Shown here one piece after another: positions 5,316-32,000 of a DNA stretch of 32,000 nucleotides. The notes beneath the pieces are model-generated. The model searched no databases, had not been told where the DNA came from, and worked only from the letters and a program-made list of their open reading frames with translations. Origin of the DNA: Chlamydiota bacterium (GTDB taxonomy: Bacteria > Auribacterota > JACPWU01); assembly GCA_016196885.1 (NCBI GenBank), contig JACPWU010000058.1, positions 1-32,000 of the forward strand. Direction: 5' to 3'. Position numbers and translations under genes: made by a program. The number at the start of each line of letters is the position of its first letter. Position 1 is the first letter of the stretch.

Positions 5316-5479
5316 TCGACAAAGAGTTGCTAGACATCTTGGCCTGTCCCGCTTGTCATGGAGATGTCCAGCTGAAAGACGAAAAAATCTGCTGTCAAAG
5401 TTGCGGACGGCGTTATCCTGTTCGGGATGGAATTCCCATCATGTTGGTAGATGAGGCTGAAAAAGGAAGTGGCTCTTAA
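5312..5479 (+). CDS. Trm112/UPF0434-family small zinc-ribbon protein
   Basis: MIDKELLDILACPACHGDVQLKDEKICCQSCGRRYPVRDGIPIMLVDEA. ATGA overlap with the rmlD stop. Confidence 0.8.
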   Translation: MIDKELLDILACPACHGDVQLKDEKICCQSCGRRYPVRDGIPIMLVDEAEKGSGS

Positions 5480-6719: not shown

Positions 6720-7760
6720 AAGCTTCGCAAAGTTTCGGGAAGCGCGCTTTTTCCAGAGGCCTTTTTCATAGGCATAGGCGGCTAGAATAGGCAGTGAGAG
6801 GGTCGCCTCCGAAAAAACCATTTGCTCGTGAACTGTGCTGACTTTGCCCCAAGAGCTGGCTTCTTTAAGCGTCGAAGAGGAACAGGCGCCGTCGCGGACG
6901 TCGGCAACGGTTATTTGCACCGCATATTTATGAACTGGAACTTCTTTGCCTAGGACTTCTGCACAGACAACGGTGTCTTGAGAAAAGTTCTTTGGGACAC
7001 CGCCCCCAATCATGAGAAGTCCTGAATCATGGCTCTTCAATTTAATTTGAGTGAGTTCGGAAAAATCTGCAATGGAATCAATGCTCATGTGTTTCTTCGG
7101 ATTTCTGGTTTGGTGGAGTACCAATCCAAAGCCTGCAGAAGAATCGCTGAATGCAGGACAGAAAATGGGGACCTGGTACTCGTAAGCCGTCTGGACCAAT
7201 GAATTTTTCTTCTTGGAATTTTTCTTTAGCCATTTTCCCATTTCCCAAATGAAGGCCCTGGAAGAATAGGGGCGGGGCTCTAGTGAATCAGCCATTTCTG
7301 AAATGGTTTTATCGCAGGCCTGTAACTCTTCTTCATCAATAAAGGTATCGTAAATGCGGTCAATGTAGAGGCTTCTCAAGAGGCTGTCGTCAATAAAAGG
7401 GGTTCCCTTATAATGTTTGAAGCCGAGGGCCTCAAAAAAATCCATGTCCACAATGGAGGCTCCGGTGGCCACAATGACATCCACCATGTTGTTTTTGACC
7501 ATGTCCACATAGACATCCATGCAGCCAGCCGCGCTCGTACTGCCGGCCAGTGTCAGCCACACGGAACAGTTTTCATCTGCAAGCATCATGTTGTAAATGT
7601 CGGCTGCTCGCGCTAAATCCCGAGCAGAAAAAGACATTTTTCGATAGGAATCTACCAGGGATGAGACCTTGAGTTTCTTGATATCAATGTGCTCAATGGG
7701 GACTTTCAGCAATTCTCTTTTTGTCATTTTCATAGTTGGCTCATTTAAATAATGCGACAC
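6681..7760 (-). CDS. Deoxyhypusine synthase family protein (DHS-like / homospermidine-synthase-like)
   Basis: 359 aa. ...WLTLAGSTSAAGCMDVYVDMVKNNMVDVIVATGASIVDMDFFEALGFKHYKG... and ...LMIGGGVPKNF... are DHS hallmarks. The 7760 start is a GTG; ATG 7733 or 7727 (MKMTKRELL) are equally possible. Confidence 0.85.
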   Translation of the reverse strand: MSHYLNEPTMKMTKRELLKVPIEHIDIKKLKVSSLVDSYRKMSFSARDLARAADIYNMMLADENCSVWLTLAGSTSAAGCMDVYVDMVKNNMVDVIVATGASIVDMDFFEALGFKHYKGTPFIDDSLLRSLYIDRIYDTFIDEEELQACDKTISEMADSLEPRPYSSRAFIWEMGKWLKKNSKKKNSLVQTAYEYQVPIFCPAFSDSSAGFGLVLHQTRNPKKHMSIDSIADFSELTQIKLKSHDSGLLMIGGGVPKNFSQDTVVCAEVLGKEVPVHKYAVQITVADVRDGACSSSTLKEASSWGKVSTVHEQMVFSEATLSLPILAAYAYEKGLWKKRASRNFAKLLNHTLHRTRIKA

Positions 7761-7806
7761 AAATTAACAATTCTAATTCTAGATTTCAACTGATAAATAT
7801 GTAAAA

Positions 7807-8661
7807 ATGAAAGGAACTTCAGGAATGATCTTCATGGTAAAAAGAGACGTAAGGTCTGAAACGATCATTGATGAGCGCCGCACATGGTTTTTTTTAGATG
7901 GGAAGTCTCTTTTGGGTTATCGAGATCTTCTTTTTCTGATGGTGAGAAGAGAATGGGTGGCGAAGTATAAACAAACCCTTCTGGGCCCTTTTTGGTTTCT
8001 TCTGCAACCCCTTTTGTTGACCTCTGTGTTCAGTCTGGTTTTCGGAAAAATCATTCGAGTCCCGACCCAAGGTATTCCCATGCTTTCGTTTTATCTTTGC
8101 GGACTCTTGCCCTGGGCTTTTTTTTCGCAATGTCTGAACTCCATCTCTAATTGTTTGGTAGATCAGGCCCCTTTGTTTGCAAAGGTTTATTTTCCCCGGC
8201 TGATCATTCCTTTGTCACTGGTATTGTCTCATTTGATGACCTTTTTAATTCAGGTTATTTTTTTCTTAGGCGTGAGCTTCAGCTTCAGTCCGCGTTTTCT
8301 CATGCTTCCTTTTTGTGTTCTTCACACGGCTCTTTTGGGTTCGGGCGTTGGGCTTTTGTTTTCAGCGATGACGGCGAAGTACCGGGATCTGAAATTTCTT
8401 CTGGGGTTTTTAACGCAGGTCTGGATGTATGGAACGCCGATTGTTTATCCCCTCACTCTTGTTCCAGAAAAGTGGAGATGGATTTCCGAAATAAATCCCC
8501 TGACAGCTGTGATCGAGGAATATCGGCATTTTTATTTTGGCACGCCCTTTGTGATTCATCCTCAAATGATGGCTCTTTCGATTTTGTTCACCCTTTTCGT
8601 TTTTCTAACAGGACTTTTGATGTTTAACCGAGTGCAAGAAACCTTTGTGGATTTTGTCTAA
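7807..8661 (+). CDS. wzm: ABC-2 type polysaccharide export permease
   Basis: 284 aa, six hydrophobic segments, the REWVAKYKQTLLGPFW motif of Wzm/TagG permeases, directly followed by the ATPase gene. Confidence 0.85.
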   Translation: MKGTSGMIFMVKRDVRSETIIDERRTWFFLDGKSLLGYRDLLFLMVRREWVAKYKQTLLGPFWFLLQPLLLTSVFSLVFGKIIRVPTQGIPMLSFYLCGLLPWAFFSQCLNSISNCLVDQAPLFAKVYFPRLIIPLSLVLSHLMTFLIQVIFFLGVSFSFSPRFLMLPFCVLHTALLGSGVGLLFSAMTAKYRDLKFLLGFLTQVWMYGTPIVYPLTLVPEKWRWISEINPLTAVIEEYRHFYFGTPFVIHPQMMALSILFTLFVFLTGLLMFNRVQETFVDFV

Positions 8662-23610: not shown

Positions 23611-25449
23611 ATGGTTGCTGTTAAGTCCAAAACTTCTGCCAATACGATTACCATCCGTTTTGCCGGTGATTCAGGAGATGGGATGCAGCTCACCGGGGAT
23701 CAATTCACCGATACCACGGCTGTGATGGGAAATGATTTTGCTACTTTTCCAGATTATCCTGCTGAAATTCGTGCGCCTCAAGGAACCTTGCCGGGTGTCT
23801 CCAGCTTTCAAATCCAATTTTCTGATAACATCATTTTTACACCTGGAGACCAAGCCGATGTCTTGGTCGCGATGAATCCAGCCGCCTTGAAGGTGAATTT
23901 GAAGACGGTTAAAAAGGGCGGGCTGATTATTGTAAATGAAAATTCCTTTGGCGAAGATCATTTGAAAAAAGCAGCTTGGAAGACGAACCCCTTGGCAGAC
24001 AATACGCTGAAAGATTTTCAGGTGCTTAAAGTTGCTCTCACCGATTTGACACGCAATGCTTTAAAGGATCATCCCTTGAAGGGTCAAGAAGTGGATCGCT
24101 GTAAAAATTTCTTTGCCTTGGGGATGATGTTTTGGATGTATGACCGAAGGTTTGAACATACAGTCGCGTGGATTGAAAAACGCTTTGCAAAAAGACCTGA
24201 GATGGTTGCTGCTAACATTGCGACATTGAAGGCGGGATTCAATTTTGCGGATATTACAGAGACTTTGCAGACCCAAATTCATGTGCCCAAGGCCCAATTA
24301 GAACCGGGTGTCTATCGGAAGATTACTGGAAATGAGGCGACTGCGATTGGATTTGTGACGGCGGCCCAGCTTGCAGGAAAAACTTTGTTTTATGGTTCGT
24401 ATCCGATTACGCCCGCGAGTTCTATTTTGCATGAGTTGGCCAAGCACAAAGTTTATGGGGTGAAAACTTTTCAGGCGGAAGACGAGATTGCAGCCATAGG
24501 CGCGGCGATTGGAGCTTCTTTTGGAGGACAGTTAGGAATTACGGGAACGAGCGGCCCGGGTGTTTGCCTGAAATCAGAGGCCTTGAATTTAGCGGTGATG
24601 ACAGAGCTTCCCCTGGTGGTGATTGATGTTCAGCGGGCGGGTCCTAGCACGGGAATGCCGACCAAGACGGAACAGGGAGATTTACTCCAAGTAATGTACG
24701 GCCGTAACGGCGATTCTCCTGTTGCTGTCATTGCACCCAAGACTCCTTCTGACTGTTTTCAAATGGCTCTTGAAGCCGTTCGTTTGGCGGTGAAATACAT
24801 GACGCCAGTGATCTTTTTATCCGAAGGTTATTTGGCTGAGGCGGCCGAGCCTTGGAAACTTCCAGAAATAGAAAAGTTGCCCAAAATCGAAATTCGTCAT
24901 CCCAAAGAAGAAAAAGATCCGTTTTTACCTTACTCAAGAAATCCTGAAACACTGGCCCGTCCATGGGCTGTTCCGGGCACTCCGGGTCTGGGGCATCGGA
25001 TCGGAGGATTGTCCAAAGCTGATTTAACGGGCAATGTGAGCTATGACCCTGACAACAATCAGAAAATGATTCTTTTGCGCCGAGAAAAAGTCGCGAAAAT
25101 CGCCAATGATATTCCAGACCTGACAGTAGAAGGACCCGGATCAGGAAAATTATTGGTGTTGGGATGGGGTGGGACTTTCGGAGCCATTTATCAAGCAATT
25201 TCTGATTTGACTCAGGAGGGTGTCAAGGTTTCTCATGCCCATTTGAATTATTTAAATCCCTTTCCCAAAAATTTGAAGAATGTGTTATCTCGTTTTGAAA
25301 AAATTTTAGTTCCAGAATTAAACATGGGACAGTTGATTATGATTTTACGTGATCATTTTCCGGGTGTGAATTTTTTAGGTCTCAATAAAATGCAAGGGCA
25401 TCCGTTTTCGGTTTTTGAAATGAAAAATAAAATTAGGGAATTACTATGA
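23611..25449 (+). CDS. korA: 2-oxoacid:ferredoxin oxidoreductase, fused gamma-alpha subunit (2-oxoglutarate type likely)
   Basis: 612 aa. N-terminal gamma-like domain (IRFAGDSGDGMQLTG...), then alpha domain (GNEATAIGFVTAA...YPITPASSILHEL...). Confidence 0.88.
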   Translation: MVAVKSKTSANTITIRFAGDSGDGMQLTGDQFTDTTAVMGNDFATFPDYPAEIRAPQGTLPGVSSFQIQFSDNIIFTPGDQADVLVAMNPAALKVNLKTVKKGGLIIVNENSFGEDHLKKAAWKTNPLADNTLKDFQVLKVALTDLTRNALKDHPLKGQEVDRCKNFFALGMMFWMYDRRFEHTVAWIEKRFAKRPEMVAANIATLKAGFNFADITETLQTQIHVPKAQLEPGVYRKITGNEATAIGFVTAAQLAGKTLFYGSYPITPASSILHELAKHKVYGVKTFQAEDEIAAIGAAIGASFGGQLGITGTSGPGVCLKSEALNLAVMTELPLVVIDVQRAGPSTGMPTKTEQGDLLQVMYGRNGDSPVAVIAPKTPSDCFQMALEAVRLAVKYMTPVIFLSEGYLAEAAEPWKLPEIEKLPKIEIRHPKEEKDPFLPYSRNPETLARPWAVPGTPGLGHRIGGLSKADLTGNVSYDPDNNQKMILLRREKVAKIANDIPDLTVEGPGSGKLLVLGWGGTFGAIYQAISDLTQEGVKVSHAHLNYLNPFPKNLKNVLSRFEKILVPELNMGQLIMILRDHFPGVNFLGLNKMQGHPFSVFEMKNKIRELL

Positions 25450-26468
25450 GTGAAGCTGTTTTGAAATTACCATACACCAAAGAAGATTTTGTTTCAGGTC
25501 AAGAGGTGAGGTGGTGTCCAGGCTGTGGAGATTATTCTATTCTCGCCACCATGCAAAGAACCTTGTCCAAATTTGATTTGCCTATTGAAAAATATGTTTT
25601 TGTTTCAGGAATTGGTTGTTCGAGCCGGTTTCCTTATTACATGAATACGTATGGATTTCATACCATTCATGGACGGGCGCCTACGATTGCGACGGGCTTG
25701 AGATGCGTGAACCCTGAGCTTTCGATTTGGGTGATTACAGGAGATGGGGATGGCCTTAGCATTGGAGGGAATCATTTGATTCACTGCATGCGCCGAAATG
25801 TGGATATTAATATTTTGCTTGTGAACAATCGGATTTATGGATTGACGAAAGGGCAGTATTCTCCGACTTCTGAAAAAGGAAAAATCACCAAGTCTTCTCC
25901 CTATGGAACGATTGAGCAGCCGATCAATGCACTTTGTGTTGCCATTGCCTCAGAGGCCACTTTTATTGCGAGAACCCTGGATACTGATCCCACCCACATG
26001 AGTTATATTTTGGAGCGGGCGGCCAAGCATAAAGGTGTTTCCTTTGTCGAGATTTATCAAAATTGTTTGATCTTTAATGACAAGGCCTTTGTCCCAGTGA
26101 CCGGTCGAGAGACGCGTGAGGACCGCATGGTTTATTTAAAAGATGGACAGCCTCTCGTATTCGGTAAGAAAAAAGACAAGGCCATTCGATTGAAGGGGCT
26201 TTATCCTGAAGAGGTGAATTACACAGCGGGGGGAGACACGAAAGATCTCTTGATTCACAATGAGAAGGATGAGAATCCGCATTATGCCTATTTTTTGACT
26301 CAAATGGAACATCCTGAAATGCCGGTTCCTTTTGGTGTTTTTCGAGCCATCGAAAAACCGACCTATGATGAAATGTTGGATGAGCAGATTCGGCAAGCTC
26401 AAGTGAAAGGGAAAGGGGATTTGAAAAGCTTGATTTATGGGCCTAACACATGGAAGGTGGGATCATGA
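25446..26468 (+). CDS. korB: 2-oxoacid:ferredoxin oxidoreductase, beta (TPP-binding) subunit
   Basis: 340 aa. WCPGCGDYSIL, GIGCSSRFPYY, ITGDGDGLSIGGNHLIH, VNNRIYGLTKGQ. ATGA overlap with korA. Confidence 0.9.
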   Translation: MSEAVLKLPYTKEDFVSGQEVRWCPGCGDYSILATMQRTLSKFDLPIEKYVFVSGIGCSSRFPYYMNTYGFHTIHGRAPTIATGLRCVNPELSIWVITGDGDGLSIGGNHLIHCMRRNVDINILLVNNRIYGLTKGQYSPTSEKGKITKSSPYGTIEQPINALCVAIASEATFIARTLDTDPTHMSYILERAAKHKGVSFVEIYQNCLIFNDKAFVPVTGRETREDRMVYLKDGQPLVFGKKKDKAIRLKGLYPEEVNYTAGGDTKDLLIHNEKDENPHYAYFLTQMEHPEMPVPFGVFRAIEKPTYDEMLDEQIRQAQVKGKGDLKSLIYGPNTWKVGS

Positions 26469-26995
26469 ATACCATTCAATGTCCAGCCTGTGGTTCTCAA
26501 AATCTAGCAGGGGAAGACAGGTGTGAGCAGTGCTTTCATTCGCTTATGCAAAGAGATTTGCCTCGAGCGAAAAAGGATGATGCGATTCAATCTGTGATGA
26601 TGACAGCTCCCATTTTAGAGCTTCTCACGGGAAAAGATTTGCTGGTCGCAAGTACAACCGATACTGTTCAAAAAATTGTAAAGATTTTTCAGAAGGAAAA
26701 TAAAAATTGCATCTTGGTTTATAAGAAGAAAAAAATGGTTGGTATTATCAGCTTTCGGGACCTTTTGTTAAAAGTCACTGGGAAAATTGAAGATCTCTCC
26801 AAAGTGAAAGCCGAAGCTATCATGACCCCCAACCCCGAATATGTTCGGGCCGAAGACCCCATTGCCTATGCCGTAAATAAAATGGCCATGGGCGGCTTTA
26901 GACATCTTCCAGTTTTGGCTCGAGATGGGACCCCCTTGAGCATTATCATGATCAAGGATGTATTGAAATACCTCTCTAAGAGAAAAGAGAAGTAG
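26465..26995 (+). CDS. Zinc-ribbon plus CBS-domain pair protein
   Basis: Start at the ATG at 26465, ATGA overlap with the korB stop. MNTIQCPACGSQNLAGEDRCEQCFHSL (CxxC..CxxC), then two CBS repeats (...NCILVYKKKKMVGIISFRDLL..., ...FRHLPVLARDGTPLSIIMIKDVL...). Confidence 0.85.
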   Translation: MNTIQCPACGSQNLAGEDRCEQCFHSLMQRDLPRAKKDDAIQSVMMTAPILELLTGKDLLVASTTDTVQKIVKIFQKENKNCILVYKKKKMVGIISFRDLLLKVTGKIEDLSKVKAEAIMTPNPEYVRAEDPIAYAVNKMAMGGFRHLPVLARDGTPLSIIMIKDVLKYLSKRKEK

Positions 26996-27087: not shown

Positions 27088-28227
27088 ATGTATAAGAGAA
27101 TATTAACCTTAGATAAGTTTTCTCATGAGAGTTCTTTCTTGTGGGGACCCCGTCAAACTGGGAAGAGTACTCTGTTAGAGCAGCTTTTTCCTGATGCGCC
27201 TTATTATGATCTTTTACTTTCAGATGTGGTCACTCGTTTCCAAGTGAAACCCTCGCTTTTAAGGGAAGAGCTTTTATCCAGTCCCCCTCACGGGCCAGTC
27301 ATTCTCGATGAAATCCAGAAGGTTCCAGAACTTTTAGATGAAATCCAGTGGCTGATGACTAAGAAAAATATCCATTTTATTCTGTGTGGATCTAGTGCAA
27401 GAAAACTGAAAAGGACGGGAGCTAATCTTTTGGGAGGCAGGGCCATTCGGTATCAACTTTATCCTCTCGTGTTTCCTGAAATCTCTGATTTTGATCTCAT
27501 AAAGGCTTTGAATCATGGTTTGCTCCCACGTCATTATCTTTCTAAAGAGCCACAGGAACTCGTCGAGTCCTATATTGCCGATTACCTTCAACATGAAATC
27601 GCTGCGGAGTCTCTTGTACGTAATCTCCCTTCCTTTCACCGCTTTCTTGAAGTGGCGGCTTTCAGCAATGGTGAGATTCCTGTTTTTAGTAACATTGCGT
27701 CAGATTGTGGTGTGAGCTCTCCCACCGTGAGGGAGTATTTTGAAATTCTACAGGATACTCTGATAGGCTCTTTTTGTCCGGCCTATCTGAAACGGCTTAA
27801 GCGTCGTTTAATTCAGTCACCTAAATTTTATTATTTTGATGTGGGGATCGCAAATTTTCTTCTTAAAAGAGGTTTTATTCAATATGGATCGGAATCTTTT
27901 GGGAGAGCTTTTGAACATTTTATCTACCAAGAAGTAATAGCTCATTCGCAATACTCTCGCAAGAAGTACCCTGTCAGTTATTGGAGAACTTCTTCAGAAT
28001 ACGAAGTGGACTTTATTCTGGGGGACGCCATGATTGCACTAGAGGTGAAAGGAGTCCCGCTGGTCAATTCAAAACACCTTAAAGGTCTTCAGATGTTTTG
28101 CGAAGATTATGCAGTGAAAAAAGCTATAGTGGTTTCGCTGGATCCCCGGCCTAGAAAAATGGGTGACATTGAAATTCTTCCCTGGAAAAAATTTCTTGAA
28201 GCGCTTTGGTCTGGAGAACTTATTTAA
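27088..28227 (+). CDS. AAA-type ATPase with DUF4143-like C-terminal domain
   Basis: 379 aa. Walker A FLWGPRQTGKSTLL, Walker B PVILDEIQ. C-terminal ...YWRTSSEYEVDFIL... restriction-endonuclease-like tail typical of the AAA_14/DUF4143 family. Confidence 0.85.
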   Translation: MYKRILTLDKFSHESSFLWGPRQTGKSTLLEQLFPDAPYYDLLLSDVVTRFQVKPSLLREELLSSPPHGPVILDEIQKVPELLDEIQWLMTKKNIHFILCGSSARKLKRTGANLLGGRAIRYQLYPLVFPEISDFDLIKALNHGLLPRHYLSKEPQELVESYIADYLQHEIAAESLVRNLPSFHRFLEVAAFSNGEIPVFSNIASDCGVSSPTVREYFEILQDTLIGSFCPAYLKRLKRRLIQSPKFYYFDVGIANFLLKRGFIQYGSESFGRAFEHFIYQEVIAHSQYSRKKYPVSYWRTSSEYEVDFILGDAMIALEVKGVPLVNSKHLKGLQMFCEDYAVKKAIVVSLDPRPRKMGDIEILPWKKFLEALWSGELI

Positions 28228-28318: not shown

Positions 28319-28347
28319 TTGACAGTTTTTCAATTCTCATTTAGATT
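28319..28347 (+). promoter_or_regulatory. Sigma70-type promoter of the Fur-family gene
   Basis: TTGACA (28319-24), exact 17-nt spacer, TAGATT (28342-47). Confidence 0.5.
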
Positions 28348-28353
28348 CTATCC

Positions 28354-28374
28354 AATTTAGATTTAGTCTCAATT
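28354..28374. promoter_or_regulatory. Candidate operator, imperfect copy (autoregulation)
   Basis: AATTTAGAT-TTA-GTCTCAATT matches 19 of 21 positions of the perfect palindrome at 28844-64. It sits between the -10 box and the ATG at 28377. Confidence 0.45.
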
Positions 28375-28376
28375 AA

Positions 28377-28823
28377 ATGAAAACTCAAACGGATATGCCA
28401 AATCGGTTTACTTCATTTCTTGAGGATAGAGGTCTTAAGTTGACGTACGAGCGGAGATATCTTTTTGAAAAAGTCTCGCGTTTGAAAGGACACTTTAATG
28501 CAGATTCTCTTTATGAGTCTCTTCAGAGAGACAAGGCTCGCATTGCTCGGGGGACGGTTTACCGGACCATTCCGCTTCTTTTGGAGAGTGGGGTCATTCA
28601 GAAGTCGGTAGGTGAGGGAAAAAGAGAGTTTTTCGAGAGCCAGACGGGAAAAGAGCATCACGATCATCTGGTATGTTTGAAATGTCATAAAGTGATTGAG
28701 TTTCACTCGGATGAGATTGAGAAGTTTCAAGATCAGATTTGTGAAAAATATGACTTTGAAATGGTTTTTCATGATCACCGAATGTATGGACACTGCGGGA
28801 GTTGTAAGGAAAAAAAGAAGTAG
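28377..28823 (+). CDS. Fur-family metalloregulator (Fur, Zur and PerR cannot be told apart by eye)
   Basis: 148 aa. RGTVYRTIPLL recognition helix region, HHDHLVCLKCHKVIEF, and a C-terminal CGSC (two CxxC pairs). Confidence 0.9.
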   Translation: MKTQTDMPNRFTSFLEDRGLKLTYERRYLFEKVSRLKGHFNADSLYESLQRDKARIARGTVYRTIPLLLESGVIQKSVGEGKREFFESQTGKEHHDHLVCLKCHKVIEFHSDEIEKFQDQICEKYDFEMVFHDHRMYGHCGSCKEKKK

Positions 28824-28843
28824 GGAAATTTTTTTTAATTTTC

Positions 28844-28864
28844 AATTGAGACTCTGTCTCAATT
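28844..28864. promoter_or_regulatory. Candidate operator: perfect 9-3-9 palindrome
   Basis: AATTGAGAC-TCT-GTCTCAATT, 21 nt downstream of the Fur-family stop and 22 nt upstream of the barrel-protein ATG. Confidence 0.55.
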
Positions 28865-28885
28865 AGAACAAGAAAGGAGGATGTT

Positions 28886-29839
28886 ATGAGGTTTGAAAAT
28901 AAGGTGAAGAAGGTTTATCGTGGGTTAGGATTAAAAATCTCTTTGTTTGCAATAGGGGTCTTGGGCTTTGCGGCATCTGCTTTTGCACATGAAAGTGTTT
29001 TCGCTTGGACATATACGACAGATTTGTTACCCAAAGGGAGATGGGAGATTGAGCATTGGACGACGGCTCGATTGGAAAAAGAGCATGGAACTTACAACGT
29101 CGTTGATTTTCGTGAGGAGTTTGAGTACGGGGTCACAGATAATTTTGGTGTGTCCCTCTATTTGAACCATCATGATGTGAATGCTAAAGAGAGTGTTCCT
29201 CAAGAGGATCCCAATAACTCAGGGCATCGCTTGCCCGGAAGCTTTGAAACGGGAGGCGAAGACATACACGCGGATCATGATCCCTCTCTTCCTTTTGATT
29301 CTTATCATTTTGAATCTGTTTCGGTGGAACTTATTTATCGGATTTTAAGCCCCTATAAGGATCCAATCGGTTTGGCTTTGTATTTAGAGCCCGAGTTTGG
29401 GGATGAAGAGACAGAGATAGAATCAAAAATTCTTTTGCAAAAAAATTGGTTGGAGGATCAGTTGGTCTGGGCGCTCAACTTGAATTATGCACTTGAATTT
29501 GAAAAGGAGGAGGAAGGGGAATACGAAAGGGACGCCAAATTTGAATGGTTTACGGGGCTTTCGTATCGTTTTATTTCAAACTGGTCCTTTGGTTTAGAAT
29601 TCTGGAATCATCATGAATTTGCGGATGCAACAGAGCATGAGCATTCTGCTTATTTTCTTGGGCCGACGCTGCATTATGGAGCCAAAAATTGGTGGGCATC
29701 CTTAGGATTTTTACATCAGCTTCCAATTGGACAGGCAATTTCCGAAGACAATAAAGAATTTGCTGAGCACGATGGCTATATTTTTGGCGATGAACATGAA
29801 AAGTATTATATTCGCCTGAAGATCGGGATTAATTTCTAA
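28886..29839 (+). CDS. His-rich putative outer-membrane beta-barrel protein
   Basis: 317 aa. Signal peptide ...GVLGFAASAFA/HES, alternating-hydrophobic strands, C-terminal ...YYIRLKIGINF (terminal Phe). About 18 His in acidic loops (NHHDV, IHADHD, NHHEFADATEHEHS, EHDGYIFGDEHE). AGGAGG SD. Confidence 0.7.
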   Translation: MRFENKVKKVYRGLGLKISLFAIGVLGFAASAFAHESVFAWTYTTDLLPKGRWEIEHWTTARLEKEHGTYNVVDFREEFEYGVTDNFGVSLYLNHHDVNAKESVPQEDPNNSGHRLPGSFETGGEDIHADHDPSLPFDSYHFESVSVELIYRILSPYKDPIGLALYLEPEFGDEETEIESKILLQKNWLEDQLVWALNLNYALEFEKEEEGEYERDAKFEWFTGLSYRFISNWSFGLEFWNHHEFADATEHEHSAYFLGPTLHYGAKNWWASLGFLHQLPIGQAISEDNKEFAEHDGYIFGDEHEKYYIRLKIGINF

Positions 29840-29849
29840 GAGGCACAAT

Positions 29850-30389
29850 ATGAAAAGGTTTGGGAAAACTTTAAGATGGTTGACAGTGCCTGGGATTGTC
29901 ATTGTGATGGATGCTCCTTCTTATGCTGAAGTGTATTTAAGTGTGGAGCAAGCGCAGCAAGTCATTTTTCCTGGAGAAGGCTTCTCAGAAATACCTTTAC
30001 AATTGAGCAGCTATCAAAAAGCTGAGATTAAGAAGCGCTCTGGGATTGCAGTTCGAGATCGCGGGATGCGCGTCTGGAAAACAGGCAAAGGAGATTTTTT
30101 GATTGTAGATACGGTGCTTGGAAAACATGAGTTTATTACCTATGCAGTGGGGATTCTTTCTGATGGAACGGTCCGTCAAATTGAAATCATGGATTATCGA
30201 GAAACTTATGGTTATCAAATACGGGATGAGGTTTGGCGTAAACAATTTGTTGGGAAGAATGCACAATCTGAGTTAATGCTGGATAAAGATATTAAGAATA
30301 TCAGTGGGGCGACTCTTTCGTGTCGTCACATCACAGATGGGGTGAAGCGACTGCTGGCAACTTATGAGACCGTCTTTCGAAAAAAATAA
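29850..30389 (+). CDS. Exported FMN_bind-domain protein (flavinylation substrate)
   Basis: 179 aa. N-terminal hydrophobic segment MKRFGKTLRWLTVPGIVIVMDAPSYA, and the C-terminal DIKNISGATLSCRHITDGV motif (SGAT flavinylation motif). Confidence 0.85.
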   Translation: MKRFGKTLRWLTVPGIVIVMDAPSYAEVYLSVEQAQQVIFPGEGFSEIPLQLSSYQKAEIKKRSGIAVRDRGMRVWKTGKGDFLIVDTVLGKHEFITYAVGILSDGTVRQIEIMDYRETYGYQIRDEVWRKQFVGKNAQSELMLDKDIKNISGATLSCRHITDGVKRLLATYETVFRKK

Positions 30390-31221
30390 TCGGATTAGAA
30401 GAGCGAGACCTTTGTTGGGGACTTTTGTTGAAGTGTCCCTCTTGGAATCTGAGTCTCAAAAGACGCAAGAAGCCATTGATCAGGCTTTTGAAGTGATTTA
30501 TCAAGTTCATTGCTTGATGAGTTTTCACAATTCGATGAGTGATGTGTCGAGGCTTAACCGTGGGGCCTTTCAGGAACCGGTGAAAGTGCATCCCTGGACT
30601 TATGAAGTTTTGAAAAAGTCAGCGGAACTTTCTCTTTTAACAAAAGGTCTTTTTGATTGCACGGTTGCTCCTCAATTGGTTAAGTGGGAATATTTGCCAG
30701 GACAGGTTGAAAAGAAGAGCAAGAGTTGGGGTTCTTACGAGGATATTAAATTTTTAAGTGCCCATAAAATCAGTTTTAGAAATCCCTTGATGATTGATCT
30801 AGGAGGGATTGCCAAAGGGTTTGCAGTGGACCAGGCGGTGACCGTTCTAAAGTCAGCGGGAATGAAGAACGGTTCTGTGAATGCTGGAGGGGATCTTAAA
30901 ATTTTTGGTCGAAAAAATCAGCCTGTGTATGTGAAGTCTCCAAGTCGCCCGAGCGATCTTGTGTTAATAGGGGAAGTCAAAGAGATGTCTGTGGCAACTT
31001 CCTCCCATTATTATTCGAGAAAATATTTAAAGGGTCGTCAGGTGAGTTCCATTATGAATCCTCTCCAAAATAAACCTTGTCTCAAAAAATGGAGCGTTTC
31101 TGTTATGGCTTCCTCTTGCATGACAGCGGATGCCTTGACAAAGGTGGTGATGCTAGCTGGAGATGCTGCAAAATCATTTTTGGAAAAATATGAGGCACGG
31201 GCGGTGATTATTAGAAAATAG
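30364..31221 (+). CDS. apbE: ApbE-family FAD:protein FMN transferase
   Basis: 285 aa. ...RPLLGTFVEVSL..., MSFHNSMSDVSRLN, DLGGIAKGFAVDQAV, SVNAGGDL, SVATSS. Overlaps the previous gene by 26 nt. Confidence 0.9.
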   Translation: MRPSFEKNNRIRRARPLLGTFVEVSLLESESQKTQEAIDQAFEVIYQVHCLMSFHNSMSDVSRLNRGAFQEPVKVHPWTYEVLKKSAELSLLTKGLFDCTVAPQLVKWEYLPGQVEKKSKSWGSYEDIKFLSAHKISFRNPLMIDLGGIAKGFAVDQAVTVLKSAGMKNGSVNAGGDLKIFGRKNQPVYVKSPSRPSDLVLIGEVKEMSVATSSHYYSRKYLKGRQVSSIMNPLQNKPCLKKWSVSVMASSCMTADALTKVVMLAGDAAKSFLEKYEARAVIIRK

Positions 31222-31238
31222 GACTATGGAAAATGAAG

Positions 31239-31428
31239 TAACTCCCCCATCCCCTCTTGTTATGCGTTTTGTAGTCGCCCCATTTATGGGGCTGCCCGAT
31301 GAATCGGGCGACTACAAAAAAACATAATGGGGAGGACTTTCATCCTCTACGATGATCTCGAAAGATCATTGGAATTAAACTAAGAGGGGAGAGACTCTCC
31401 CCTTAGATAAGGGGAGTTGGAGGGGTTA
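31239..31428. repeat. TAAC/GTTA-ended C-tract/G-tract intergenic repeat, copy B (MITE/REP-like)
   Basis: Same 5' end and 3' module as copy A. Internal 13-bp stem TTTTGTAGTCGCC/GGCGACTACAAAA (31267-79 / 31307-19) encloses two mini-hairpins. Further hairpins: GAGGA/TCCTC, ATGATCT-CGAA-AGATCAT (31352-69), CTCCCCTT-AGAT-AAGGGGAG (31397-416). Its last base is the A of the next ATG. Confidence 0.55.
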
Positions 31429-31922
31429 TGGGTTGTTCCAGCACCATGAAAATTCCTAAAAAGCAAAGATCCATTCTATATATCAGCTTAATCATTCTTT
31501 TTTTGTCCGGAGCGATTTGGTGGGGTGCCAACTTTTTGATAAAACCTGAAACAGAAATAGATAGCTTTATTTATACCTCTCGTTCCCTCAGTCTGGAAAT
31601 TCATGGGGGAGTGGCGATGGTGGTTTTAATGGTTTTAGGATCTCTTATCCCAAATCATATTCTAAAATCATGGAGGGCCAAGTTAAATAGGAGAAGCGGG
31701 GTTCTTCTCATCACTGTTTTTGTCCTTCTCATTCTAACGGGATATTTTCTCTACTATGCAGATGAAAATTTAAGAAATTTTTCAAGCACCCTTCATCTTG
31801 TTCTGGGATTTCTTTTGCCTTTTTTTGTGATAGGTCATATTTTGAGAAGTCGCGCTTTTCGGCGTAAGGAGAATAAGAGGAGGGTCGGTCGTGTTAAAAT
31901 ACAAGAACGAGCTGTCTTATGA
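31428..31922 (+). CDS. Four-TM membrane protein with paired His on helices 2 and 4 (cytochrome-b-like, DUF4405/MsrQ-like by layout)
   Basis: 164 aa. TM1 ILYISLIILFLSGAIWWGANFL, TM2 EIHGGVAMVVLMVLGSLIPNHI, TM3 GVLLITVFVLLILTGYFLYY, TM4 LHLVLGFLLPFFVIGHIL. GGAGG lies 4 nt before the ATG. An alternative ATG is at 31446. Confidence 0.7.
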   Translation: MGCSSTMKIPKKQRSILYISLIILFLSGAIWWGANFLIKPETEIDSFIYTSRSLSLEIHGGVAMVVLMVLGSLIPNHILKSWRAKLNRRSGVLLITVFVLLILTGYFLYYADENLRNFSSTLHLVLGFLLPFFVIGHILRSRAFRRKENKRRVGRVKIQERAVL

Positions 31923-32000
31923 AAATGGAACGGGTCTGGATCGTATATTTAGAAGTGTGTCCTTTTAAGAGGAGGCGGGTCCTGTCCCTCCTCACCCAGC
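31919..32000 (+). CDS. 5' end of an unknown ORF, truncated by the window edge
   Basis: ATGA overlap with the previous stop. MKMERVWIVYLEVCPFKRRRVLSLLTQ..., open to the edge. Function cannot be assigned. Confidence 0.3.
   Translation, partial: MKMERVWIVYLEVCPFKRRRVLSLLTQ

Follow-up and report, generated by a model that had tools for sequence, protein, structure and literature searches.

The stretch analysed here, hereafter the window, comprises 32,000 nt of DNA (positions 1 to 32,000 of contig JACPWU010000058.1, GCA_016196885.1) from a metagenome-assembled genome (MAG) labelled Chlamydiae. Near its 3′ end, a gene for a Fur-family repressor precedes genes for a DUF6662 protein, a protein with an FMN_bind domain, an ApbE-family flavin transferase and a small membrane protein with four transmembrane helices (4-TM protein), and two predicted operators accompany them (Table 1). 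DUF6662, FMN_bind, ApbE and the 4-TM protein together make up a conserved module of four envelope proteins. A preliminary description, made from the sequence alone, had taken these genes for a flavin-based unit for periplasmic metal reduction and uptake that is repressed by the Fur-family protein. All gene positions given there were confirmed by the open reading frame (ORF) listing and by scans with Pfam and NCBIfam, and the domain assignments stand as well. NCBI gene calls were taken from GCA_016178005.1.

Table 1. Features of the Fur-type repressor locus and the DUF6662 module in the window.
Feature	Positions	Strand	Remarks
Sigma-70-like promoter, TTGACA-17-TAGATT, 5′ of fur	28319-28347	+	10/12 consensus matches; consensus match only
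Predicted operator array 1, two overlapping ICE-like boxes CATTTAGATTCTATCCAATTT, AATTTAGATTTAGTCTCAATT	28338-28374	.	Overlaps the -10 hexamer and the start of fur
Fur-family repressor gene, 148 aa	28377-28823	+	Pfam FUR E 3e-29; NCBI start 28395
Predicted operator 2, perfect 9-3-9 palindrome AATTGAGAC-TCT-GTCTCAATT	28844-28864	.	21 nt 5′ of DUF6662 start codon
DUF6662 outer-membrane beta-barrel (predicted), 317 aa, group A subtype	28886-29839	+	PF20367 E 4e-16
Sec-exported FMN_bind protein, 179 aa	29850-30389	+	PF04205 E 8.5e-13
ApbE-family FAD:protein FMN transferase, 285 aa, without signal peptide	30364-31221	+	PF02424 E 2e-50
Structured spacer, 206 nt, nested inverted repeats	31222-31427	+	Outside conserved module
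Four-helix inner-membrane protein, 164 aa	31428-31922	+	NCBI start 31446; candidate di-haem cytochrome b
41-codon ORF overlapping the 4-TM stop codon (ATGA)	31919-32000	+	Probably no gene

A genome scan with one genome per species yielded 293 DUF6662 relatives, of which the best 80, all from MAGs, were retrieved; their loci are cited here by L numbers. The five window proteins were searched against all ORFs of these loci, 72 of which were not cut by contig ends. The order DUF6662-FMN_bind-ApbE-4TM was intact in 61 of the 72 assessable loci and in many phyla; the remaining 11 held either a partial set (four loci) or the barrel gene alone (seven). Loss of this order in relatives had been set beforehand as the outcome that would speak against a functional unit. 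When the search was started from the 4-TM protein, 242 homologues were found, and all three long contigs examined carried DUF6662-FMN_bind-ApbE-4TM. The best 80 relatives were mostly labelled Verrucomicrobiota ('Ca. Udaeobacter', Chthoniobacterales), with further labels from Omnitrophota, Auribacterota, Burkholderiales, Rickettsiales, Bdellovibrionales, Methylomirabilota and more. DUF6662 homologues amounted to 366 in the word-indexed set and to 1,899 cluster representatives (E ≤ 1e-3) in a library of 1.84 billion proteins.

The DUF6662 protein matched PF20367 with 59.8 bits (cut-off 27). Its leader ends in ...SAFA before HE and its C-terminus in ...GINF. An AlphaFold2 (AF2) model built on a 96-sequence alignment was all-beta, with 12 long strands and a subtype-specific hairpin (pLDDT, the predicted local confidence, 92.8; pTM, the predicted template-modelling score, 0.85). 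Foldseek matched this model to the 12-strand barrels FapF, NanC and COG4313 (template-modelling (TM) score ~0.55, E ~1e-8). A signal peptide, a closed antiparallel barrel and a C-terminal aromatic residue are thus all predicted, and DUF6662 is modelled with confidence as an outer-membrane barrel of the 12-strand type. The barrel fold of the 317-aa protein, which had been named beforehand as a check, was therefore borne out by both the model confidence and the barrel matches.

The barrel is acidic in composition, with 56 Asp and Glu against 26 Lys and Arg. It contains 17 histidines; the first count of about 18 was one too high. Within the strands, Glu54, 56, 78, 80, 148, 168, 179, 204 and 238 are invariant or at least 95% conserved, as are Arg76, Arg152, Lys181 and Lys186. 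The topology was read from the strand pattern with the C-terminal Phe taken as periplasmic, that is, from inferred geometry and not from model coordinates; in this topology the conserved charged residues, lying inside strands, would face the lumen. The family falls into two groups. The window protein belongs to group A, whose members share an insertion of 13 residues and have 16 His in the median. Of the 17 His positions of the window protein, eleven are kept in 45 or more of the 55 group A sequences, and at four of these eleven (242, 253, 263 and 304) His is still the commonest residue in group B. Most of the histidines would lie in the two long loops or where strands end on the extracellular side. 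With a mouth rich in His and an acidic lumen, the barrel would fit a channel or a binding site for metal cations. DUF6662 was also considered as a flavinylation substrate, like DUF3570, and was rejected as such; its conserved TGGED is without an acceptor Ser/Thr. The Verrucomicrobial loci L009, L012, L013, L017 and L024 (~6945-7980) have a second, divergent DUF6662 paralogue, which follows the group A barrel gene in tandem and precedes the FMN_bind gene.

Of all proteins encoded in the operon, the barrel is the best conserved, which is unusual for an outer-membrane protein. Between the window and L006, L010, L061 and L067 (labels Chlamydiae, Auribacterota, Omnitrophota, Verrucomicrobiota) the group A barrel is 64-77% identical, compared with 33-62% for FMN_bind, ApbE and the 4-TM protein. 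The latter three proteins of the window are closest to those of L061 and L067, whose barrel is of group B (39% identical). From this mismatch between the barrel and the other genes, it seems that the barrel gene was either exchanged or kept under unusually strong constraint. In the Udaeobacter-type loci L002 and L045 a lone barrel was kept at the same genomic position, which speaks for an independent function of the barrel, for example as a channel.

Strong conservation of the barrel, together with the presence of one component per envelope layer, could also be explained if barrel and flavoprotein were a haem-poor counterpart of the porin-cytochrome complexes and served respiration of external acceptors. 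We regard this as very improbable. A 12-strand barrel is too narrow for an FMN_bind domain of ~120 aa, compared with the 26 strands of MtrB. In addition, the Fur, hemP and FTR1 context described below indicates assimilation, and most of the host MAGs bear labels of soil Verrucomicrobia with small genomes. A precedent for such respiration is the flavin-based extracellular electron transfer of Listeria (PMC8238504).

The FMN_bind protein matched PF04205 with 49.2 bits (cut-off 22). Its nearest solved relative is RnfG, the best match in the PDB, and the acceptor sites of the two align. The ISGATLS motif is present, and the predicted flavinylation site is Thr155 (30312-30314) in DIKNISGATLSCR. Of 61 FMN_bind homologues, 58 have SGAT, in each case as part of D-[IV]-[KR]-N-x-SGATLSCR. 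The leaders of the homologues in L006, L056, L058, L061, L072 and L082 are of Sec type and end in A-x-A before (V/I)Y. Since such hydrophobic leaders are conserved, we place the start of the 179-aa protein at 29850. The NCBI call of 160 aa begins at an internal Met (start 29907) and cuts off the signal peptide.

ApbE matched PF02424 with 172 bits (cut-off 25.6), and its domain starts at residue 18. The PDB matches were V. cholerae ApbE and TM1553 (4e-21 to 6e-21). Residue 11 of the window protein aligns to residue 8 of the V. cholerae ApbE chain in 6NXJ, itself only 328 aa long, and between the upstream in-frame stop and the PLLGT first strand there is room for a median of 19 codons (59 loci). 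Domains and acceptor motif fit the pairing of ApbE with an FMN_bind substrate, but none of the loci encodes an ApbE with an export signal, so that simple flavinylation in the periplasm does not account for the pairing in full. Lipoproteins destined for export make up most ApbEs, those known without a signal act on targets in the cytoplasm, and extracytosolic ApbEs serving exported substrates carry a lipoprotein or Sec/Tat signal (PMC12052999).

Two candidates for an export signal in ApbE were rejected. A frameshift fusion of FMN_bind and ApbE would lend ApbE the signal peptide, and an A7 run is present at the overlap in the window. However, the frame relation varies among loci: the genes overlap in +1 in the window and in most Verrucomicrobia, are in the same frame after a stop in L029, L030, L039 and L042, and are separated by gaps in L032 and L033. 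The other candidate, a Tat signal RRxRPLLGT, is the first strand of the ApbE fold, which aligns with 6NXJ from residue 8.

The 4-TM protein has 150-165 aa in its family and carries four histidines, two on helix 2 and two on helix 4: His59 (31602-31604), His77 (31656-31658), His123 (31794-31796) and His137 (31836-31838). Leaving aside a few copies that are truncated or frameshifted, none of the four varies among the 58 locus homologues. They were likewise invariant in a database alignment of 116 sequences, together with Gly28, Gly71, Gly91, Leu108-Tyr109-Tyr110 and Gly127. Conservation of these histidines was the second check named beforehand for this protein set, and the 116 homologues agree with it. 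The AF2 model (pLDDT 91.4) consists of four long helices and its best fold matches in the PDB are HyaC (the cytochrome b of hydrogenase-1), cytochrome b of complex III and the superoxide oxidase CybB, with TM-scores of 0.51-0.56. According to the model, the protein is a four-helix bundle with four conserved His which could in principle ligate two haems b.

By the positive-inside rule, the termini and the loop between helices 2 and 3 would be in the cytoplasm, and therefore one His pair would lie near each membrane face. This is the arrangement that would be needed for electron transfer across the membrane. The protein matched PF01292 (cytochrome b561) with 32.4 bits (cut-off 30.1), over helices 3-4 only. 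Within the family, 21 of 116 members matched PF01292 (E ≤ 0.01) and 18 of 116 matched DUF4405, all of them weakly. NCBI labels the window protein as 'DUF4405 domain-containing'. Membership in this family was rejected; the score for PF14358 is under the threshold (18 bits; cut-off 26.7) and the protein has four helices rather than six. The likeness to di-haem b proteins suggested in the preliminary description is thus retained in the four-helix bundle and in the weak best matches to di-haem b cytochromes, and its DUF4405 part was given up. In our reading, the 4-TM protein stands for a small and new lineage within the di-haem cytochrome b superfamily and would bind haem.

The regulator encoded 5′ of the module matched Pfam FUR with 102 bits (cut-off 23.1) and has the motifs HHDH and VIEF and two CxxC pairs. 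In the PDB, its best sequence matches are without exception to ferric uptake regulators (V. cholerae Fur, 8e-23), with PerR and Zur at ~1e-13. In NCBIfam, Fur ranked first (89.9 bits; cut-off 146), followed by PerR (73.6) and Zur. At the VIEF position the regulator has Glu, where PerR has Asp. When metagenomes were scanned with the Fur protein for more Fur-linked loci, only two relatives were found, with 32-34% identity.

The palindrome of operator 2 is indeed perfect, as first described, and is the sole 9-3-9 palindrome in the window. By itself it was not taken as significant, as 0.3 such palindromes are expected on average per 32 kb and at least one occurs in 26% of Markov-1 simulated sequences. 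However, a near-copy lies 5′ of fur (28354-28374), where it overlaps the promoter-like site, and the half-site GTCTCAATT occurs at only two places in the 32 kb, namely operator 2 and this near-copy. In L006 the counterpart of operator 2 is AATTGAGATTGTGTCTCAATA, at the same relative position (5665). The near-copy at fur, the restriction of the half-site to both sites and the equivalent boxes in L006 are what makes the palindrome meaningful. Tandem boxes 5′ of fur were found in L006 (5162, 5178) and L067 (4437, 4453), and boxes are also present in L061 (5218-5286). Examples are TTTAGAT-N3-GTCTCAA in the window and TTTAGAT-N3-ATCTAAA in L006; the iron control element (ICE) motif of the regulator Irr is TTTAGAA-N3-TTCTAAA (PMC1698941). 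These sequences suggest palindromic operators at the promoters of both the regulator itself and its target.

The module could also deal with a different redox-active metal or with an oxidant, for example by reducing Cu(II) or Mn or by detoxifying superoxide or peroxide in the periplasm, and the regulator would then be a sensor of the Mur, PerR or Nur type. In line with this, the regulator is under every NCBIfam equivalog cut-off and clostridial PerR scores 1.5e-20, the 4-TM fold matches the superoxide oxidase CybB with a TM-score of 0.56, His-rich sites also bind Cu, Ni and Zn, and a gene for an outer-membrane efflux protein (OEP) follows the module in L067. Nevertheless, we consider this explanation decidedly unlikely. 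The best matches of the regulator are all to ferric uptake regulators and VIEF contains Glu, and in other lineages Fur-box-like sites, FTR1, a ferritin-like gene and hemP indicate iron.

The closest relative of the window locus, L006 (Auribacterota; Fur 80% and barrel 77% identical), keeps both operators, in the order boxes-fur-box-hemP-DUF6662-FMN_bind-ApbE. In L067 the order is boxes-fur-orf156-hemP-DUF6662-FMN_bind-ApbE-4TM, with an OEP gene 3′ of the module. L061 has kept boxes and hemP and has lost fur. The 156-aa ORF between fur and hemP in L067 (4948-5418) is without a Pfam match. Only its 3′ end is left in L061 (~5330-5440), so a deletion appears to have taken out fur.

The hemP genes (PF10636, E 1e-13 to 1e-17) were found through a pattern for their C-terminal motif and are outside the reach of the phmmer searches used. 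They head the operon in two unrelated lineages and are located at 5704-5877 in L006, 5677-5896 in L061, 5707-5901 in L067 and 4999-5157 in L070. No hemP is present in the window itself.

HemP at the head of the operon raises the question of haem, or of the iron within it, as the substrate: the barrel could admit haem or another tetrapyrrole, electrons from flavoprotein and cytochrome could serve to release or process it, and HemP and Fur would regulate the process in the manner of other hemin-uptake operons. The resemblance of the operators to the ICE also fits, as Irr works with HmuP at haem-uptake genes in Bradyrhizobium. COG4313 is moreover among the nearest fold relatives of the barrel, and this channel has been proposed for hydrophobic substrates. 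Known uptake of haem across the outer membrane, on the other hand, uses TonB-dependent receptors, and a lumen lined with invariant Glu would suit cations and not a hydrophobic anionic macrocycle. Genes for haem binding, haem transport or haem degradation were not linked to the module, and the window itself is without hemP. In our view, uptake of haem is an improbable role.

A further link to iron was found in seven Burkholderiales loci. Here, a Fur-box-like site is followed by a gene for the iron permease FTR1 (E 1.6e-27), which lies directly 5′ of the barrel gene, and then by the four genes of the module; hemP is present between box and FTR1 in six of the seven. The Fur-box-like sites, for example TATAGTGAGAACTATTATC, are promoter-proximal and have 4-5 mismatches to the 19-bp consensus. 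When 24 loci were scanned, 15 had Fur-box-like sites within 250 nt 5′ of the first gene of the module, and in these 15 the site was the best and usually the sole match in ~13 kb. They comprise the seven Burkholderiales loci, L004, L054, L066, L072, L077 and L081 (4-5 mismatches), and L079 and L082 (6-7), although Fur-box matches are inflated by AT-rich intergenic DNA in GC-rich genomes. Lone barrel genes are flanked by a ferritin-like gene in L085 and by TonB-dependent receptors in L077. The association with a Fur-family regulator and with iron put forward in the preliminary description thus holds, given the adjacent fur, the operators in L006, L061 and L067 and the iron genes elsewhere. In loci other than those with fur, regulation would rest on the Fur-box-like sites.

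Among the Verrucomicrobia, L008-L047 share a near-invariant intergenic GATTGC-N3-GCAATC about 60-110 nt 5′ of DUF6662, followed by CAAAAATTGGCAAC...TCCGGCAGC (alignment A5). This motif is a candidate operator with promoter.

FTR1 directly 5′ of the barrel gene in the Burkholderiales loci would also fit electron flow in the reverse direction. The flavoprotein would then oxidise Fe(II) admitted by the barrel, the cytochrome would pass the electrons to the quinone pool or the cytoplasmic face, and Fe(III) would be handed to FTR1, by analogy with FtrB/FtrD in FtrABCD or with Fet3/Ftr1. An acidic barrel lumen would suit a free cation such as Fe2+. Flavins, though, oxidise Fe(II) poorly compared with copper sites, by far most loci, the window among them, lack FTR1, and a cupredoxin or P19-like partner was not seen in the loci. 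We think that this reverse flow is unlikely, even though some known clusters of P19 and FTR1 include an FMN_bind protein whose role is undefined (PMC8238504).

We favour the reading of the module as a redox system that is induced by iron starvation and serves to acquire iron, and give this a probability of roughly 55%. It joins the domains, the folds, the conservation of residues and gene order, the operators and the iron-related context observed in silico. In the lineage of the window, the module would stand behind its own Fur-type repressor, with ICE-like operators at fur and at the barrel gene, and would be repressed by iron. The cytochrome would bind haem, take electrons from the quinol pool or another donor and move them across the inner membrane. 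The periplasmic protein, carrying covalently bound flavin, would receive these electrons and reduce a ferric species captured or admitted by the acidic, His-rich barrel. Fe(II) would then enter through an inner-membrane transporter, which may be the operon-encoded FTR1 in the Burkholderiales loci and an unlinked one in the window. Compared with the preliminary description, this reading keeps the domains, the barrel, the histidines, the gene order and the link to iron, and leaves out DUF4405.

Several observations weigh against iron acquisition of this kind. An inner-membrane iron transporter is not linked to the module in the window or in most loci, and hemP would fit haem just as well as iron. 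The regulator does not reach any NCBIfam equivalog cut-off, so that its metal specificity is only predicted, and the operators of the window are nearer to the ICE motif of Irr than to the canonical 19-bp Fur box. Moreover, fur is adjacent only in the window, L006 and L067. For the 4-TM protein, the E-values of the fold matches are weak (0.04 or worse), and its profile gave no sequence match below E ~1 in the PDB. The barrel gene stands alone in seven of the 72 loci and is paired directly with the 4-TM gene in two (L053, L060), which indicates that the barrel can work without the flavoprotein. Finally, no ApbE among 59 loci has a typical signal peptide while its presumed substrate is Sec-exported, which leaves a gap in the simple picture of periplasmic flavinylation.

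A more specific version of the iron-acquisition reading would make DUF6662 not a passive pore but the metal-binding terminal part of a flavin-based, multihaem-free iron reductase that spans the envelope. A conserved extracellular crown of His and Glu would hold Fe(III), and the flavinylated protein, docked to the barrel at its periplasmic mouth, would reduce this iron by way of the lumen. The signal-less ApbE would flavinylate the flavoprotein in the cytoplasm before Sec export, an order that is undescribed for ApbE substrates. As a whole, with crown, reduction through the lumen and cytoplasmic flavinylation included, we find this version unlikely. If true, it could represent the main siderophore-independent iron route of the globally dominant soil Verrucomicrobia ('Ca. 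Udaeobacter').

Among known proteins, members of PF01292 (E. coli CybB, HyaC, FdnI) share with the 4-TM protein the four helices and the size of ~170 aa, and provide its best fold matches (6G94_B, 5OC0). They use helices 1, 2 and 4 for His, whereas the 4-TM protein has its histidines two plus two on helices 2 and 4 and the Pfam match covers helices 3-4 only. The 12-strand channels COG4313/Pput2725, FapF and NanC are the best structural matches of DUF6662, and one DUF6662 member also matches PF13557. However, identity is only 7-12%, and DUF6662 has its own ladder of invariant Glu, its His cluster and different genomic partners.

The general kind of system is already published, namely ApbE with a flavinylated extracytosolic protein and a His-pair membrane cytochrome, linked to iron and Fur; a part in iron reduction has been attributed to flavinylated systems that include membrane cytochromes, and Fur represses them (PMC8238504, PMC11334425). 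Closest in composition are the PepSY-like/MsrQ-like clusters, putative assimilatory ferric reductases described by Meheust et al. 2021 (PMC8238504), which likewise combine ApbE, an FMN_bind substrate and a His-pair membrane cytochrome. They are also tied to iron reduction and uptake, some being Fur-repressed and some having an outer-membrane receptor or an iron transporter (PMC8238504). In contrast, the cytochrome of the module is a four-helix protein of ~160 aa without a PepSY or ferric-reductase (PF01794) domain, a small DUF6662 barrel takes the place of a TonB-dependent receptor, and ApbE is without an export signal. The DUF4405 cytochromes of Huang et al. 2024 (PMC11334425) resemble the 4-TM protein in being small and apbE-linked, with four central His and a proposed role in iron redox, and binding of haem b was shown experimentally for one of them (PMC11334425). 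They differ in having six helices, in occurring mainly in Proteobacteria and Firmicutes and in their association with Flavodoxin_4 and energy-coupling factor (ECF) flavin transporters (PMC11334425), while the 4-TM protein has four helices and is tied to DUF6662.

FtrABCD and P19-FTR1/EfeUOB are iron-regulated, as the module would be, and unite FTR1 with an electron carrier in the membrane and a redox protein in the periplasm; a variant with FMN_bind exists (PMC8238504). FTR1 shares the operon with the module in the Burkholderiales loci, as in these FTR1-type systems. Unlike them, the loci of the module are without P19, cupredoxin, EfeO and EfeB, and most are without FTR1; conversely, the FTR1-type systems have no dedicated outer-membrane barrel. 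DUF3570, a flavinylated protein of outer-membrane type found in DsbD/ApbE clusters, some of them with an iron transporter, is another protein of unknown function that is encoded with apbE (PMC8238504). It is itself an ApbE substrate, whereas DUF6662 lacks [S/T]GA[S/T] and the module has a separate FMN_bind protein as its substrate.

No paper on the DUF6662 barrel, the four-gene module or the 4-TM family was retrieved by literature searches that covered DUF6662, PF20367 and hemP, FTR1 and ApbE in combination, in agreement with the earlier statement that this is not a named system. What we did not find in searchable papers, and what is thus new relative to the published kind, is the DUF6662 partner, the four-gene module and the small 4-TM family. 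Extracytosolic electron transfer with ApbE-flavinylated proteins has been recognised in bacterial physiology only of late, and most of it is uncharacterised. To this, the module would add a dedicated outer-membrane partner, a minimal cytochrome-like family with four helices and four His, most members of which match no Pfam model, and a topological puzzle in the consistent combination of a signal-less ApbE with a Sec-exported substrate. Should the module be an iron-acquisition system, it would offer a testable explanation of the iron supply of its carriers, which are concentrated among MAGs with labels of uncultured soil Verrucomicrobia (best 80). The four genes are small enough for reconstitution in E. 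coli.

Regarding the remaining features of the locus, the tight packing of genes noted earlier does not extend to ApbE and the 4-TM gene, between which the structured spacer lies. Its folding energy is -93.1 kcal/mol (z -7.7), and it contains nested hairpins, terminal inverted repeats and the inverted repeat I1 (31267-31319). A search of the 206-nt spacer against Rfam matched no family. In the other loci the 4-TM gene abuts or overlaps ApbE. Since the spacer is missing at this junction in all of them, it is probably an inserted element resembling a miniature inverted-repeat transposable element (MITE) or a repetitive extragenic palindromic (REP) element. The trailing ORF does overlap the 4-TM gene by ATGA, as described, but was dropped as a fifth gene; a double stop ends its translation, and it is absent from the NCBI annotation.

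The 5′ neighbours of the locus in the window (27088-28227 and 25446-26995) include genes for an AAA_14/DUF4143 ATPase and a CBS-domain protein with a zinc ribbon. A look-alike of the beta-type subunit of 2-oxoacid:ferredoxin oxidoreductases, also among these neighbours, was recognised by eye only. These neighbours recur next to the module in none of the other loci. In the Verrucomicrobial loci, the module sits between rpoC or a gene for a PduO-type adenosyltransferase on one side and rpsB-tsf on the other.

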